In this document: one piece after another, positions 14,740 to 32,760 of the stretch
How the letters are laid out: the number at the start of each line of letters is the position of its first letter
How positions within the stretch are numbered: position 1 is the first letter of the stretch
From: Candidatus Borrarchaeum weybense
Lineage (GTDB): Archaea > Asgardarchaeota > Sifarchaeia > Borrarchaeales > Borrarchaeaceae
NCBI GenBank assembly: GCA_019057385.1
Contig: JAHQJS010000004.1
Location: 1,234,539-1,298,538 of the forward strand
Direction of reading: 5' to 3'
DNA: 64,000 nt
Position numbers and translations under genes: made by a program
The notes under the pieces: generated by a model
Seen by the model: only the letters and a program-made list of their open reading frames with translations
Told to the model about the DNA's origin: nothing
Database searches by the model: none

Positions 14740-15744
14740 TCAACTAATTTTTAACACGGCTGCTCCATTAAATCGACTATATTTAAGGTCACTCAGAGCT
14801 TGATTTGCATTTTCCAATGAATAAGGGACAGTTTCCGTTTTTATTTCGATTTCCTGGGCTATTTTCAAGAATTCGATGGCATCTTGACGTGTAACATTTG
14901 CAACGCTCACAATCTTACGCTCATGCCATAAAAGATCCCAGGATATCGGCGGAATATCTGATAAATAGATCGCATTTATAGCTAAAGTGCCACCACGATC
15001 GAGTTGTTGAAGTATATCCAACACTAAAGGTCCGGATGGCGCAAATGAGATCGCTCTATCTATTTTTTTAGGAGGTATATCTTTAGAAGTTCCAACCCAA
15101 GCAGCATCAAGTTCTTTCGCGTGTTCTTGATGTTCTTTTGAGCGAGTGAAGACAAAAACCTCACAATCCCAATGGTTAGCAATCTGAATTACTATATGTG
15201 CAGAAGCTCCAAACCCAAACAACCCCAGTGTTTCGCCAGGTTTTACTTCTGACAGTCTAAGGGACCTATAACCAATGACTCCCGCACACATTAAAGGAGC
15301 GGCTTTAATATCATCAAAAGATTCTGGTAGAAGATAAATATAATCGCTGGGAGCGGTTACAAATTCTGCAAAACCGCCATTCTCACTAAATCCGGTGAAT
15401 TTGGCATGTGGACATAAGTTTTCTTGGCCTCGAACGCAATATTTACAAGTTTGGTCAGTAGAATAGAGCCATGCAACACCCACACGGTCTCCTTTCTTAA
15501 AATTCTTTACGTTTTCCCCTAATTCATCAACGACAGCCACAATTTCATGTCCAGGTACGATAGGTAATTTGGGTAGGGGATCTAATTCACCCTCAACGAT
15601 GTGTAAATCTGTGTGACACACGCCACAGGTTTTTAATTTAAGTAATACTTCATCCTCAGATAGTGGTCTTTTAATGGGAATGTCCTCCAATTCGAGTGGC
15701 GAGTTTTCGATACTATCAGGCTTTCTAAGAACCATAGCTTTCAT
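14740..15744 (-). CDS. Zn-dependent alcohol dehydrogenase family protein
   Basis: CGVCHTDLH, GHE, GLFGFGASAH; paralogue of 6336..7355. Confidence 0.9.
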   Translation of the reverse strand: MKAMVLRKPDSIENSPLELEDIPIKRPLSEDEVLLKLKTCGVCHTDLHIVEGELDPLPKLPIVPGHEIVAVVDELGENVKNFKKGDRVGVAWLYSTDQTCKYCVRGQENLCPHAKFTGFSENGGFAEFVTAPSDYIYLLPESFDDIKAAPLMCAGVIGYRSLRLSEVKPGETLGLFGFGASAHIVIQIANHWDCEVFVFTRSKEHQEHAKELDAAWVGTSKDIPPKKIDRAISFAPSGPLVLDILQQLDRGGTLAINAIYLSDIPPISWDLLWHERKIVSVANVTRQDAIEFLKIAQEIEIKTETVPYSLENANQALSDLKYSRFNGAAVLKIS

Positions 15745-15963
15745 AATCAAAACCACTTGCTTTTCTCTTCAATTATCTTGTTTATCATACTTTCACAGGA
15801 ATGCTCAATCAGTGTTTGGGATCAATTTACTTATAATGATATTCAAGTGAGCAGTAGTCATTTTGTCCCCTCTTCTTGTAGAGATCATAATTTTAAGAAG
15901 GGATATGAGCGAAAAAATGGTCACCGAAAAAATAGGAGAAAAATATATTCAATTTAACCATTA

Positions 15964-16396
15964 TTAAATAGAAAAACTCCATTCACAGCCTTCCATATAC
16001 GCTGGCGGAAGCCTTATTGGTCTTACTCTAATATTTGGATTTATTTCCTTCGCAAATGCTATAAAATAAGCTCCACTGACTGGTTCGCAAACGAATCTAG
16101 TTCTATCAGCCTTTTTCATTGCTTCAAGAGTTCGGCAATATTCAATATGAAGAATAGCCTCGCTATCAGTGAGCATCTCATAATGGCATTCTACTTGAAG
16201 CATGAATGGTGCACGAATCAATATTTCTAGAGCCGTTTCAAGTGAACTGTCCTGTACATTGAATAACGATCTCAATCGTTTTGCTTCTTTTCTTCCATAT
16301 TTTTTCCATACATCAACGTCTATTTTTAAAGCGCTTTCATAATCAGTCATTTTCTCTGTTGTCAGAAACCATAACGCATCCATAACAAAGAATAAA
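15964..16396 (-). pseudogene. DUF6125-like gene, 3' part (interrupted by tnpB element 1)
   Basis: Frame upstream of Met16383 reads DLFFV-MDALWFL; Cys pattern and C-terminal CEWSF; joins in frame to 17837..17904. Confidence 0.75.
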
Positions 16397-16404
16397 TCAC
16401 TATA

Positions 16405-17836
16405 GTTACTACTTTCGTAGAAAAATATTAAACTTCTTCCATACTAACCACAGGAACAAGTGGAAAGTAGTTAGAGGACTGGGGACCATATACTCCCAGG
16501 GATAGCCCGCGATCTCGTATGTTGCATGCGGCGTTATAGTCGGCGTCACCCTTATAACCGCAAGCTGGACATACGAATTTTTCATCTCGACGGATACCCC
16601 TGCTTCCACACTTGTGACAGACTTGACTCGACCAGTATGGGTACACCTCTATCAGGAAAACACGGTTTTCCTCGCAGAGCAACTCCAATTTGGTACAAGC
16701 ATGACGATAAGCCCAGTGTGAGAGCAGTCGGTTAGTGTAACGATTTCTTCGCTTCTTTTTATATTTTCGCGCTTTCTTACTTCGTCCTTTCTTCACATCT
16801 CGTAAGCGTTCGATCACTAGCACTCTTATTCTCGTGAAATCTATCTTCTTCAACTCACTATTGATGTGTTCTTTAATTATTAGGTGGCTTTTTTTCCTTC
16901 TGTAAAACCGCTCTATTTCCTGTTTCAATGTTCCTCCAACGATTTGACCATCAGATATCACTGCTAGTTTGCGAAAGCCCAGGTCCAGACCTACCATCTC
17001 TCCCAATTTTCTTATTGGGGGCAGTTGCTTCTCGAAGAAGACATCAAGGAAAAAGCCTTGTTTGGTTCTTCGTAGCCTACAGGACTTCAATAACTCCCAA
17101 CCCTTATTATAAAAAGAGTTAAAGTGATGATGTCGTTTGGTTGGCAGATAAATGGGTCTGCCACCTAAAATAGAGATTTTGATCCAGAGGTCAAAGGTGT
17201 TGTTGCCTTTTTTAATTTGCGCAAAGCGTTGGTCCAGTTCAAGTGTGGCTTTACAAATGACTGGTTTGGTTTTTTTGGTACGTTTACGCTGAGACTTGAC
17301 ATTCTGGAGTGCCTGTTTGGCGGCACATTGCTTGTATCGTTCTGTCAGTGATGTCCTTATGTGCAGGTAATATTTTTTAGGGACAAATGAGCCTTCGAAT
17401 ATATTATGATTCCAGAGGGTGTTGATGCATTTCTGCATAAAACTGAGATATTCATCAATTAAGTTATTCAGTATACTTTGTTTAAGTTTAGTCACATAGT
17501 TTAAGCTAAGGGTGGCCCGCCTAATCACGATATTCTCAAATCCTTTCGTATCTCGATATTAAACTATTAGTTACTAAGACACGTACTTAAGAAGAGTATT
17601 AGTCTTTATGATGCGGCTTTACAGAGTTAGTATATACAATCACCTTTTTTTAAGAACAGACTCCCCTTTGTATAAGTAAAATATCAAAAAAGAAAACCGC
17701 TTTCAGCGTTATGAAGTTAGGCAAATTGAGAGGAAACCTGATTGTATGATTACTTCTGATATAACCTCATTAAAACAAATTATGGCGATGTGTTTACGCG
17801 TTTTCTATGATTTCTATATTTTTACCTAAATCTCTT
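16405..17836 (-). mobile_element. Non-autonomous tnpB element 1 (IS607/IS200-605 superfamily, no transposase)
   Basis: Bounded by direct repeat TCACTATA at 16397-16404 and 17837-17844; removing 1440 bp restores a 166-aa ORF; TAGAAA-type subterminal repeats at both ends. Confidence 0.88.
16428..17528 (-). CDS. tnpB: RNA-guided endonuclease TnpB (366 aa, IS607-type)
   Basis: RuvC-I GLDLG, RuvC-II VIERL, Zn finger CHKC..CPAC, RuvC-III DADYNAACNI. Confidence 0.93.
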   Translation of the reverse strand: MIRRATLSLNYVTKLKQSILNNLIDEYLSFMQKCINTLWNHNIFEGSFVPKKYYLHIRTSLTERYKQCAAKQALQNVKSQRKRTKKTKPVICKATLELDQRFAQIKKGNNTFDLWIKISILGGRPIYLPTKRHHHFNSFYNKGWELLKSCRLRRTKQGFFLDVFFEKQLPPIRKLGEMVGLDLGFRKLAVISDGQIVGGTLKQEIERFYRRKKSHLIIKEHINSELKKIDFTRIRVLVIERLRDVKKGRSKKARKYKKKRRNRYTNRLLSHWAYRHACTKLELLCEENRVFLIEVYPYWSSQVCHKCGSRGIRRDEKFVCPACGYKGDADYNAACNIRDRGLSLGVYGPQSSNYFPLVPVVSMEEV

Positions 17837-17904
17837 TCACTATACATTTTAATTAGTTCAATTAAGTCGTGTTTCGAAAAATCCTTGAAGTCTGCTATTT
17901 TCAT
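17837..17904 (-). pseudogene. DUF6125-like gene, 5' part (MKIADFKDFSKHDLIELIKMYS)
   Basis: ATG at 17904 behind AGGTGA; continues in frame into 16396 once the element is removed. Confidence 0.8.
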
Positions 17905-17982
17905 AAGCTCACCTAATTTCGCCTCTTACTTGTTTCAGAACTTCAGATAGTACCAAAAAACGTAGATGAAGAGTAAAATAAT

Positions 17983-18390
17983 TCAAAAATTAAATCTGAC
18001 GGATAATATGTCTTTTATTTTAGTGATAAAAACTTCAGCATCATTTATAGCGCTTCTTGCGTCATCTTCTGATATAAAAGAGACTATTCCGTAATCCGCG
18101 CTTTCTCTAAATGAAAGTAATTTATTTAGAATTCTACCAAACTTTTCTTCTAAGAGGCCTTCTTTAATAACCCGGATTCCAAAAACAACTTGGAGACCTT
18201 TGTGTGTTCTTGTATCTTCTCCTAAAAGATATAAAAGTGCTTTTGAAGCATGAAAAACACTATAGTAGGCTCGACTGATCGCATCCTCGTAAAATTTATT
18301 TTTAAAGAGAAGCTGAGCTGCAGAAATTGCTTTATCTGATCGCTCTATATACTCTTTGGCAATCTTGAACGTGTTTTCTTTTTCACTCAT
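17983..18390 (-). CDS. HEPN domain protein (MNT-associated)
   Basis: AISRAYYSVFHASKALL, THKG, RESADY; true start ATG 18390. Confidence 0.88.
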   Translation of the reverse strand: MSEKENTFKIAKEYIERSDKAISAAQLLFKNKFYEDAISRAYYSVFHASKALLYLLGEDTRTHKGLQVVFGIRVIKEGLLEEKFGRILNKLLSFRESADYGIVSFISEDDARSAINDAEVFITKIKDILSVRFNF

Positions 18391-18791
18391 AATTACCACC
18401 TCAAGGAGACCCCCCAACATGTTGGGGGGAGGAATTGAGGTTGGGCGTTGCTCACACTACCCTTTCTGCGGAGACAGGGTTTGGTGTACCCAACCTCAGG
18501 TGGTGTGTTAATGACGGGTACTCGCAAGTCCCGCCGCTCCCCACACCAAGGGAGTAGGTTCTCTTCGCCAAAGTTATCAGTCAGTACTATACGATGATCA
18601 CTGAGAGTTTCCTCTCTGTTTAAACCACCGTTTACAGAGCAAAGGACTAGAGAAGCATCCTTTGGTGTGTTCTTGAACTCTCCTGATAACGTAGATACCG
18701 CCATAGACTATATGACCTCTCTTAGGCTAATCAACCAATTACTCTTGCTCCTCACGGAACAAGCCCTCTATTTTTTTGGAGGGTGATTGAC
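18391..18791 (-). mobile_element. Protein-less IscB-type (HEARO/omegaRNA) IS200/IS605 MITE, 401 bp
   Basis: Minus strand starts GTCAATCACCC..GGGCTTG..GTTGATTAG and ends AATTCCTCCCCCCAACATGTTGGGGGGTCTCCTTGAGG..; removal gives CGA-TTA-TGA with ATGA overlap of MNT stop and HEPN start. Confidence 0.87.
18520..18791 (-). ncRNA. IscB omegaRNA / HEARO-like RNA scaffold
   Basis: Ordered hallmark blocks CTACGTT, ACACC..GGATGCTTCTCTAGTCC..GCTCTG, TAAACAG..CAGTG, AACTTTGGCGAAGAGAAC; 3' boundary approximate. Confidence 0.8.
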
Positions 18792-19117
18792 AATCGAATG
18801 CCTTCCTTTAGAATGTTCTTAATTATAGGATCTCCTTTCTTATGACGATATTCTTCTTTGGAGAGAAAAACTAAAGAGACAGGCACAGAGTACTTAAGAT
18901 ATATTTCCGAAAGTTCATTTTGAAGAGCGTCCCTTTTATTGTTATCTCCTACAATTAGCAAATCAAGATCACTGTCTGGACGGTAATTACCAGTTGCAAA
19001 TGAACCATAAATAATTGCCAAGTCAATTGATTCTTCATTGTTCTTCAGGATTTTTTTCAGAAGATCAATTATTTCTTTTTCGTATAAATATAACACTCTG
19101 TTGACCTCATAAATCAC
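18752..19117 (-). CDS. Minimal nucleotidyltransferase (MNT); last 12 aa contributed by the MITE
   Basis: YGSFATGNYRPDSDLD (GS-x10-DxD) and ILKEGIRL end typical of MNTs. Confidence 0.88.
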   Translation of the reverse strand: MIYEVNRVLYLYEKEIIDLLKKILKNNEESIDLAIIYGSFATGNYRPDSDLDLLIVGDNNKRDALQNELSEIYLKYSVPVSLVFLSKEEYRHKKGDPIIKNILKEGIRLSITLQKNRGLVP

Positions 19118-30505: not shown

Positions 30506-30513
30506 TACCAACC

Positions 30514-32394
30514 GTTCCTTTCATTATAGACATCTCTTAACAACTCTTTGCAGTTATTAACACTGTCTATCCACCCAACGTCTGAACAAGACGGTGAATG
30601 GAGTCCCCGCTAGGACGGTTGAGCGGGATACCCGTCGCCATATAGGGGACAGGCTTTGCCTGTTTTAAACTAAAGCGCTTCTTACGCTTTTCTTGATACA
30701 CTCGATAGATGTTCACCGCCGCGATGTAATCGCGGTCGGCTAAATATGAACACGCCCCACAGTAAAAGAATCGGCCGCGTTTTAACACCTGGTGGGCACG
30801 GGGGTCACTGATCTTCGCCCCTTTGGCACCACAGCGCGGACAAAAACTCGATGTCCAGCGCGGGTTTACCCGCACCAGCTTGATACCGTAACGCTGTGCC
30901 TTGTACTTGAGAATTTCGTAAAAGGCCCCCCGTAGCCAATTGGAGAGTTTACGTGAGATTTTACGCAGGTGTTTCGGCGGCTGGTAGTTGCGCAAGTCCT
31001 CCAGCACGATGGTCTTGCACCCCCATGTAAGGGCAGTCTCCAGCAGCTGGTTGCTCGCTAAATGCAGTATCTCCTCGCGATAGCGGTTCAGTTTACGGTA
31101 CAGCCGCTCCAGTTCCTCCCTACGTTTACCCTGCCCGTACCAGTTGACGGGATAGCGATCTAACTTGCGTTGCAGCCGGGAGATATGGTGGTAGAGAGCG
31201 TCTATTTTTTGCAACACGGTGGTAGAGGGCGACCAGAAAATGGGAGGGCTCAACTGCGACCCAGCTTCACAGATTACCGAGGTCGTCAGTTTGATCACCC
31301 CCAGATCGGTGGCCAGCACACGGTTCGCCCGTAACGGCGGATAGTGTGTCTGAGGCTGCGTCTGGTGTTGGGGGTTTGGGTCAAAAGACCATGCACATTC
31401 CAGAAAGGGGAGTGTCAAGCCGCCTTTCAGTGTGATATAGCGTAAGTTAGGGGGACACAATTTACTAGAGGGTGAGATCACCCGTGCTTGAAGTTTGGCC
31501 GGTATCGACAGGGTAAACTCCTGCCACCCCCAGTGGGAGCGTTTCGTAGGCTGTGGGCGGCAGGGGAGTTTCAGTCTGATGGCGATGATGCTTGGATCGG
31601 CTTGGTGCGGCTGCCAGTCGTACTGAAGGGCTTGCCCCTCATCGGGGCTGTAGGGCAGGCTAAACGAGTGAAGTCGTGGTTTCACGACTGCGGAGTAAGG
31701 AAACCGCAACAACAGGCTTAAATCCAAGCCGAGTTGATAATAATAACGCCTAAACATGCGTAAGGTCTGACGGATCAGCGCCCAGCGATAAAATATGCCT
31801 TCAAAATTCGCTAAGGTGAGGGCTACGGTGCGCACTAAATTATCCAGTTTGCCCTCTACACCCGTGAGTTGAACGATCCGTAACACATCATAATAACACT
31901 GTTTGCGGATGGCTTGCGAGCGAAGGATGCGTCCCACCTGTTCGGCGATACACCGCCTGATGCGAGAGGGCAGGTACACCGCCGTTCCCTGGCTAGTGGT
32001 TAAGTTGACGCGCCGTTCGTTGATGACTTTGTAGGCCTTTTTTGTGCGGGCGGAGTCCAGCGTATCGATCCAATGATCGGACCATAATTCGGCTAAGAGT
32101 TTTTGAGCAGCGTGCATCACAATATCTTGGAGCATATCCAGTTCGAGGCGTAAGGTGGCGTCTTGTGGGAGTTTGAGTGGATACGTGTGCGTCAGCGAGG
32201 TCATAGGTGTGAAGTTCTCCTGCAGTTAAGGTGATATGGTCGTTCAGGGAGTTACCGGCACTTGAGTATAGAGAAACTAGTTATAAAAAGACAACCTTTT
32301 TTTAAGTAGTAACAAGGAGGTAGTCATTTGACGCCTCAAGCCGTGAAATAAATGTCTATAAAACGATACATGTGTTAATAGATGTGTCAACTTT
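30514..32394 (-). mobile_element. Non-autonomous tnpB element 2 (IS607-like ends, no transposase)
   Basis: Direct repeat TACCAACC at 30506-30513 and 32395-32402; subterminal motifs TTATAGACAT, ACATCT(A/C)TTAACA and TATTAACAC inverted between ends; visibly GC-richer than host. Confidence 0.9.
30567..32204 (-). CDS. tnpB: Large TnpB / Cas12f-like RNA-guided endonuclease (545 aa)
   Basis: RuvC-I ATDLG, RuvC-II VLEDL, VNPRWTSSFCPRC..CGAC, RuvC-III DRDYIAAVNI; ~300-aa N-terminal region. Confidence 0.9.
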   Translation of the reverse strand: MTSLTHTYPLKLPQDATLRLELDMLQDIVMHAAQKLLAELWSDHWIDTLDSARTKKAYKVINERRVNLTTSQGTAVYLPSRIRRCIAEQVGRILRSQAIRKQCYYDVLRIVQLTGVEGKLDNLVRTVALTLANFEGIFYRWALIRQTLRMFRRYYYQLGLDLSLLLRFPYSAVVKPRLHSFSLPYSPDEGQALQYDWQPHQADPSIIAIRLKLPCRPQPTKRSHWGWQEFTLSIPAKLQARVISPSSKLCPPNLRYITLKGGLTLPFLECAWSFDPNPQHQTQPQTHYPPLRANRVLATDLGVIKLTTSVICEAGSQLSPPIFWSPSTTVLQKIDALYHHISRLQRKLDRYPVNWYGQGKRREELERLYRKLNRYREEILHLASNQLLETALTWGCKTIVLEDLRNYQPPKHLRKISRKLSNWLRGAFYEILKYKAQRYGIKLVRVNPRWTSSFCPRCGAKGAKISDPRAHQVLKRGRFFYCGACSYLADRDYIAAVNIYRVYQEKRKKRFSLKQAKPVPYMATGIPLNRPSGDSIHRLVQTLGG

Positions 32395-32760
32395 TACCAA
32401 CCCCACAAACATTATGCCTCCAACAACTAAGAGCCACAACAACTCGTTGCTCGTATTATATACTCTGTGATCCGTGTTTTCTTTATTATATATCGCATCT
32501 CCAGCCTCAAATTCATAATTGACTCCTTCGGATTCTATTGTTCCCCTTCCTTGAAGAACATAATATACTTCTTCACAATTATGTCTATGTAACGGAGAAT
32601 GAGAATTCGGTTCAATTTCAACAATGCCCATAATGAGTGTTTTAGTTTCTACACCAGTTTCAGGGTATAGTACTTTAAGATCCTTTACTCCTGGACGCGA
32701 CTCCATTGGAGCACCTGGGATATATTCAGATTTCTTCACAACAACCTTACTAGAAGGCAT
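32356..32760 (-). CDS. Cupin domain protein, C-terminus replaced by element sequence
   Basis: HRHNCEEVYYVLQGRG and H..YN cupin motifs; native tail lies at 30464..30505. Confidence 0.85.
   Translation of the reverse strand: MPSSKVVVKKSEYIPGAPMESRPGVKDLKVLYPETGVETKTLIMGIVEIEPNSHSPLHRHNCEEVYYVLQGRGTIESEGVNYEFEAGDAIYNKENTDHRVYNTSNELLWLLVVGGIMFVGLVKVDTSINTCIVL

Follow-up and report, generated by a model that had tools for sequence, protein, structure and literature searches.

In the genome of the archaeon Candidatus Borrarchaeum weybense, a gene of the DUF6125 family is split by a precise insertion of exactly 1,440 bp that carries a tnpB gene as its only protein-coding component. Very probably this is a non-autonomous element of the IS607 family, with TAT as its core and a right end finishing ..AACTAT, whose left-end start AGTGA is not a target duplication and which is now stranded. 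It is an ordinary IS607 member, new only as a member of its family, in its archaeal hosts and with its TAT core. The window, i.e. the whole stretch of DNA analysed here, comprises 64,000 nucleotides; all positions refer to it, and those of the features are collected in Table 1.

The 8-mer TCACTATA described previously at the two borders was re-found at 16397-16404 and 17837-17844, both on the plus strand. Read along the tnpB (minus) strand it is TATAGTGA, the left junction being ..AAAATG TATAGTGA AAGAG.. and the right junction ..AGTAAC TATAGTGA TTTATTC... With four occurrences in the window versus 2.5 expected, the 8-mer is no rarity, so that its significance rests on its position. Excision of the 1,440 bp, joining 17904..17837 to 16396..15964, yields an ORF of 166 aa (MKIADF..LIKMYS, continued by DLFFVMDALWFL..) with an AGGTGA ribosome-binding site 7 nt upstream of its ATG. 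The ORF downstream of tnpB as annotated (15964..16383) matches Pfam DUF6125 from profile position 23 onward only. In two congeneric genomes we identified alleles with an empty site (L018, 92% nucleotide identity; L019, 84%), which align without a gap across the junction and hold the 8-mer once, as TATAGCGA in the context ..AATTAAAATGTATAGCGACTTATTC... Their ORFs, 165 and 166 aa long, are intact, contain ..LIKMYSDLFFVMD.. and match the DUF6125 profile from position 2 to 163. As both alleles lack the element, the insertion is real, precise and younger than the split from these two congeners. The preliminary description of a tnpB-only element dividing a DUF6125-like gene is thereby borne out, the host-gene homologues running straight through the reconstructed junction. 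The element is oriented in sense with respect to the DUF6125 gene and is present as a single copy in the 4.18-Mb genome, in which no further copy of the element or of its left end was found.

Table 1. Features of the interrupted DUF6125 locus and the second tnpB element (window coordinates).
Feature	Position	Strand	Description and basis
Inserted DNA	16402..17841	-	1,440 bp by IS607 convention, left end from AGTGAAAG.. to right end ..GTAACTAT, shared TAT counted once; colinear empty alleles L018/L019 and family right end at AACTAT
Host DUF6125 gene, 5' fragment	17842..17904	-	Frame continues 14 codons into the element, stop at 17794
Host DUF6125 gene, 3' fragment	15964..16401	-	Pfam PF19620 match from profile position 23; orthologues
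tnpB	16428..17528	-	366 aa, GTG start; RuvC D182/E240/D330 and zinc finger intact
Non-coding left end	17529..17841	-	313 bp; AAAG(A)GATTT motif, TATAGAAAT (17810-17818), CATAGAAAA (17801-17809)
First 5 nt of left end (AGTGA)	17837..17841	-	Same 5 nt open the right flank; the portion of the 8-mer that varies
23-nt echo of right-end terminal segment 16412-16434	17543..17565	-	78% identity; lies shortly before the tnpB start (direct repeat D1)
Right end / predicted omega-RNA scaffold	16402..16548	-	Overlaps 3' end of tnpB, finishes ..GTAACTAT; profile of 27 relatives' right ends
Conserved scaffold hairpin CTGGGAG..CCCCAG	16479..16499	-	RNAalifold
Predicted guide-encoding flank AGTGATTTATTCTTTG	16386..16401	-	Host DUF6125 codons; predicted from the stop of conservation and IS607 analogy
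Left flank ATG-TAT	17842..17847	-	Host codons Met-Tyr; proposed TAM/target motif (A)NG plus TAT core
Second tnpB-only element	30506-32402	-	1,889 bp, large TnpB, flanked by GGTTGGTA

Judged by its conserved residues, the encoded TnpB looks functional. The ORF has a Cas12f1-like TNB domain (Pfam PF07282, 59 bits), and the D/E/D RuvC residues, already noticed as retained, are invariant in an alignment of 22 family sequences, as is the CxxC..CxxC zinc finger (C304/C307/C320/C323). The score on the NCBIfam model guided_TnpB (NF040570) is 96.2 bits, just below the cut-off of 100, and the NCBIfam models of IS200 and IS607 TnpB both give only weak, partial matches. Other TnpB genes of the same genome are at most 30% identical, and in 400 genomes of the phylum no close relative was detected at E <= 1e-40 among the five candidates scored per genome. 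A search of 5.8 billion proteins returned 56 TnpB relatives, the best being 65% identical. Few of them are named: these belong to metagenome-derived archaeal bins (Hodarchaeota, Freyarchaeota and Altiarchaeota by name), and a weaker match (42% identical) is labelled Nitrospirae. Named genome contigs carrying relatives belong to Methanomicrobia, Methanophagales and Altiarchaeota, in addition to 63 metagenome contigs without a taxon label.

The family assignment derives from the neighbourhood of these relatives. At 36-65% TnpB identity, they have a gene for an IS607-type serine recombinase directly upstream of tnpB. This tnpA encodes ~190 aa with an N-terminal DNA-binding region and the catalytic motif YARVSS, and at many loci its stop overlaps the tnpB start. 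The complete tnpA of L051, L059 and L083 reach 161-173 bits on NCBIfam transpos_IS607 (NF033518; cut-off 110), the gene upstream of tnpB in the complete element L127 has a Pfam Resolvase domain, and truncated tnpA copies occur in about ten further loci. Because serine recombinases, and no Y1 transposase, were seen beside the relatives in the loci inspected, the TnpB clade is IS607 and not IS200/605; the preliminary description had left both families open. The present element is a non-autonomous IS607 derivative, consisting of tnpB and a guide-RNA scaffold without the serine-recombinase tnpA. Its non-coding left end, previously put at ~310 bp and now measured at 313 bp, contains no tnpA or remnant of it: tblastn with the TnpA of five relatives gave nothing better than E ~1, by which a degenerate tnpA was rejected. 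For an IS607 transposase anywhere in the genome, tblastn came back empty and the best NF033518 match had 24.8 bits, compared with the cut-off of 110. The lack of tnpA noted earlier thus holds for the element, its left end and the whole genome, and in a genome without a cognate transposase the copy is now stranded.

The ends of the element could be placed by comparison with its family. About 25 distinct right ends finish [G/T][G/T/C]AAC TAT, including those beside TnpBs that are only 36-40% identical, and conservation is absent from position +1 after AACTAT. The profile of 27 relatives' right ends has a single match on our element, ending exactly at 16402 (E = 4.4e-25). As no family member departs from AACTAT, TAT is part of the conserved end; by this alignment the right end is ..AACTAT, and the end at ..GTAAC that had been favoured before is not supported. 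Left ends were fixed without assuming any repeat, by means of elements known from two insertion sites each. L037 and L040 are one such pair, their common sequence running from TAT-CATTAAAG / TAT-CATTAAAGC.. inward while both flanks differ, and the same relationship was found for L083 and L099 (common sequence from TAT-TAAATAT.. inward). As both pairs keep their post-TAT bases at different sites, the bases after TAT are the element's own wherever this comparison can be made. L049, L044, L043, L125, L127 and L130 have homologous left ends that start with TAT-NNNN-AAAG or TAT-NATCAAAG. The left end of our element starts with TAT-AGTG-AAAG-AGATTT, after which comes TATAGAAAT, the family left-end motif. 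In relatives, a naive search for 8-mer repeats to mark the left boundary had given the misleading TATAGA (L049) and TATTGT (L043) and was superseded by the sibling-pair boundaries. In the L041/L045/L087 subgroup the left-end boundary is uncertain; only L045 was scored, with a provisional value.

TAT is preceded by G at each of the 13 defined left junctions, whereas every right end has C (AAC) there; in addition, an A was found at position -3 in 8 of the 10 first-defined left junctions. TAT is therefore the fixed shared core, the counterpart of GG in classical IS607 elements, and we infer that the exchanged core dinucleotide lies within it.

No terminal inverted repeats abut the 8-mer. The right-end motif TTTCTA has its inverse in the left end in the form of both TATAGAAAT and CATAGAAAA (inverted pair I3). 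Across the relatives, left ends contain TATAGAAA and right ends TTTCTATA, TATAGAAAT being the inverse of the latter. The 23-nt echo upstream of tnpB is probably a repeated subterminal motif of the kind typical of IS607 ends; it was rejected as a second, degenerate right end or omega-RNA, as the profile of 27 right ends matches the true right end only. Elsewhere, no DNA relative of the left end was found, and Rfam gave no match to it. Two further observations concern the region before tnpB. CTTAAAAAAAGGT occurs in both tnpB elements of the window (17650-17675, and in the left end of element 2), closely preceding a TATA-like box (by a few bases) and ~110-130 nt before tnpB; together they may constitute an archaeal promoter (BRE/TATA) for tnpB. 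In L043, L044, L049 and L125, the short left ends (~100 nt upstream of tnpB) have a copy of the tnpB start region (..GTCAAGATGATAAGA..), then an inverted match (TCATCACTCCCTAC), then the real start, a conserved hairpin-like duplication in tnpB-only relatives.

The second tnpB-only element of the window has a comparable architecture. Right ends of its family read GAAAGGAAC GGT in 12 copies across the genus, followed by variable flanks, and G precedes GGT at all seven left junctions. A congener copy (L107) has a serine-recombinase C-terminus upstream. From these ends and junctions, and from the recombinase of L107, element 2 is also IS607-type, with a 3-nt fixed block and five matching bases: its window copy shares TGGTA beyond GGT, compared with 0-1 bases in five sibling insertions. 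In this genome and its congeners the family is represented by full, internally deleted (~350-580 bp) and solo-right-end copies.

As to the bases following TAT, we counted how far the identity between left-end start and target extends in the family of the first element. There are no extra identical bases in L037, L040, L049, L044 and L130, one in L043, L083, L125 and (provisionally) L045, two in L127, five in our element and seven in the metagenomic L055 (10-mer TATTAAATAT), whose left-end start is the same as in L083 and L099. The preliminary description had proposed to distinguish between a target duplication that varies with the site and a fixed recombination core. Part of the 8-mer is such a fixed core, namely the 3-nt TAT, whereas the other 5 nt are site-specific; the possibility, raised at the same time, that other copies would show only a short core applies to a large extent, the identity ending 0-2 nt beyond TAT in 10 of 12 insertions, but L055 shares ten. 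The chance of a 5-nt extension is ~0.3^5, i.e. ~0.2% per insertion. For the two families together, at least five extra bases were found in 3 of 18 scored insertions (none has three or four) versus ~0.04 expected at an assumed per-base match probability of 0.3, two of the three cases, namely both window elements, having been ascertained by their repeats and L055 not. Plain IS607 recombination, with a 2-bp core only, does not predict extensions of 5-7 nt, and no relationship beyond (G)GG was seen among IS607 targets (Chen et al. 2018, eLife 7:e39611; PMC6188088). This excess of 5-7 nt is probably not random, its cause being uncertain.

Pure coincidence, with the five extra bases being noticed because readers seek flanking repeats, is an improbable explanation. 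It would accord with the way in which the two window elements were ascertained, with the lack of an extension in most family insertions and with the 8-mer being common in the window, but the 7-nt extension of L055 falls outside this ascertainment (~0.3^7 per site, ~0.003 over 12 insertions), and the overall excess given above likewise argues against it. Even less do we favour a true 8-bp target-site duplication, made by a trans-acting transposase with an 8-nt stagger at TAT-starting sites, in which case the element would run from AAGAG.. to ..GTAAC. Two unrelated tnpB-only elements of the window are both flanked by exactly 8 bp, and family members differ from one another in the stretch that separates the core from the conserved left-end AAAG (CATT, TATT, TCTA or TATA in relatives at the positions of AGTGA). 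However, L037/L040 and L083/L099 retain their post-TAT bases at different sites, ten other insertions of the first family and five of the second share the 3-nt core plus 0-2 nt only, no terminal inverted repeats adjoin the repeat, and TAT and GGT follow AAC in solo right ends as well. Moreover, the relatives' transposases are all serine recombinases, a class without duplications in characterised IS607 elements (PMC6188088). We thus prefer not to read AGTGA as a target duplication, bearing in mind that this copy has no sibling and that the first four bases of AGTGA differ from those of the relatives at the same positions.

The conserved right end is predicted to encode an omega-RNA scaffold. 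Its hairpin comprises six pairs, of which four show compensatory changes and none is broken (RNAalifold, 12 sequences); Rfam omega-RNA families gave no match at the element. In the IS607 element of Clostridium botulinum, the core closes the scaffold and is directly followed by the guide (Zedaveinyte et al., bioRxiv 10.1101/2023.11.20.567912). By analogy, the scaffold would here end with ..AACUAU and, as TAT lies in the conserved end, the guide would begin at AGTGA, i.e. at AGTGATTTATTC / AGUGAUUUAUUC (RNA AGUGAUUU), and not with TATAG as in the guide TATAGTGATTTATTC (RNA UAUAGUGA) proposed previously. The left-flank consensus points to (A)NG-TAT as the probable TAM, in place of the A-rich ..AAATG suggested before. 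An end at ..CTATAG had been considered to carry a risk of self-cleavage. The TAT context is indeed shared between both sites, but C precedes the core in the right end and G in the target, so that C-TAT instead of G-TAT would protect the occupied site; the C. botulinum element was shown experimentally to avoid self-cleavage by a difference of this kind, its TAM being TGGG and its right end TCGG (10.1101/2023.11.20.567912). At two loci of metagenomic relatives (L058:2150-2311 and L065:3459-3734) the right end/scaffold is present twice in tandem, each copy ending in AACTAT with a different sequence following, which looks like stacked right ends or guide cassettes.

According to our proposal, which draws on the analogy to characterised IS607 elements, a serine recombinase would move the elements of this clade, exchanging DNA at a short core common to the joined transposon ends and the target. 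With TAT as the conserved shared block, TAT would come to stand at both borders without duplication. A guide RNA would read out of the right end into AGTGATTTATTC.., and TnpB would recognise the empty site via a TAM including G-TAT, sparing the occupied site with its C-TAT. The five further bases would be the element's own left-end start, matching the target either by chance or by preference; one candidate reading is that the recombinase prefers target half-sites resembling the left-end start. A speculative variant, to which we assign very little likelihood, is that base identity running from the TAM/core 5-7 nt into the guide position steers a minority of IS607 insertions through a primitive form of RNA-assisted target choice. 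The excised circle would join the right end to the left end and so give rise to an omega-RNA with the left-end start as guide; TnpB loaded with it would seed at G-TAT plus a short match and bias integration of the circle. The evidence does not speak specifically for such RNA assistance over a half-site preference of the recombinase at the DNA level. If real, the excess bears on target choice by IS607 recombinases or TnpB.

Elements with tnpB only are classically filed under IS1341. Such IS1341-type elements of the IS200/IS605 family, which are common in archaea, are non-autonomous and have a stand-alone tnpB with a guide scaffold at the 3' end, and our element resembles them in these respects. 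An IS200/IS605-type origin would mean that a Y1 HUH transposase mobilised it in single-stranded form, with insertion 3' of a tetra- or pentanucleotide, and the weak partial matches to IS200 as well as IS607 TnpB models would be compatible with this. We nevertheless consider it most unlikely: this clade is associated with a serine recombinase and not with a Y1 HUH enzyme, the transposase being IS607-type wherever its gene was seen in the loci inspected, and the core common to both borders as well as the repeated subterminal motifs fit IS607. Next to negligible is the idea that the DUF6125 gene still works because an IStron-like or archaeal-intron-like element is spliced from its mRNA; although the element lies in sense orientation within coding sequence, its removal restores the frame and bacterial IS607 IStrons exist (10.1101/2023.11.20.567912), a group I intron/IStron was rejected for want of any Rfam match (group I intron included) in 15500-18800 at E <= 1, and archaeal bulge-helix-bulge splicing because the pairing gain between the two junction RNAs (-6.2 kcal/mol) equals that of shuffles (-6.1 +/- 2.9 kcal/mol).

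Compared with the C. botulinum IStron (10.1101/2023.11.20.567912), the IS607 elements described here agree in having the serine recombinase tnpA directly upstream of tnpB (in the relatives), a short core common to borders and target, a scaffold predicted here to end with the core and to be followed immediately by the guide, tnpA-less copies, and G versus C directly upstream of the core (TGGG/TCGG there, G-TAT/C-TAT here). They differ in that the block is TAT instead of GG, the hosts are archaeal, a group I intron is absent, and neither the copy nor its genome has a tnpA; a 5-nt extra identity between left end and target is not described there. With IS607, IS1535 and ISC1926 (eLife 7:e39611; PMC6188088) they have in common the lack of terminal inverted repeats, the absence of a target duplication in most copies, subterminal motifs repeated at both ends (here TATAGAAA on the left and TTTCTATA on the right) and a recombinase composed of a MerR-like domain followed by a serine-recombinase domain. 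The target is (G)GG in those elements, whereas it is G followed by TAT here, with a minority matching the left-end start over 5-7 further bases.

The locus offers an archaeal TnpB element of IS607 type whose boundaries are clear-cut and for which empty-site controls are available. Its right end, predicted guide start and candidate TAM (G-TAT) were defined from ~25 relatives, which is useful for testing this clade of compact (~355 aa) TnpBs. Points made for clostridial IS607 are extended to archaea, namely the shared-core architecture (TAT, and GGT in the second family) and the contrast of G in the target with C in the right end, which may likewise serve to avoid self-cleavage in the archaeal families.

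Close to the interrupted gene, a HEARO RNA (Rfam RF02033; 132 bits, gathering score 83) was found at 18554-18791 on the minus strand, between an MNT gene (18752-19117) and a HEPN gene (17983-18420). HEARO is an IscB-type omega-RNA, and no full iscB ORF lies beside it. In one of the two congeners (L018) the whole HEPN/MNT module is absent. In the other (L019) the HEPN and MNT genes abut, from which it follows that ~398 bp at 18394-18791 of the window are an insertion.
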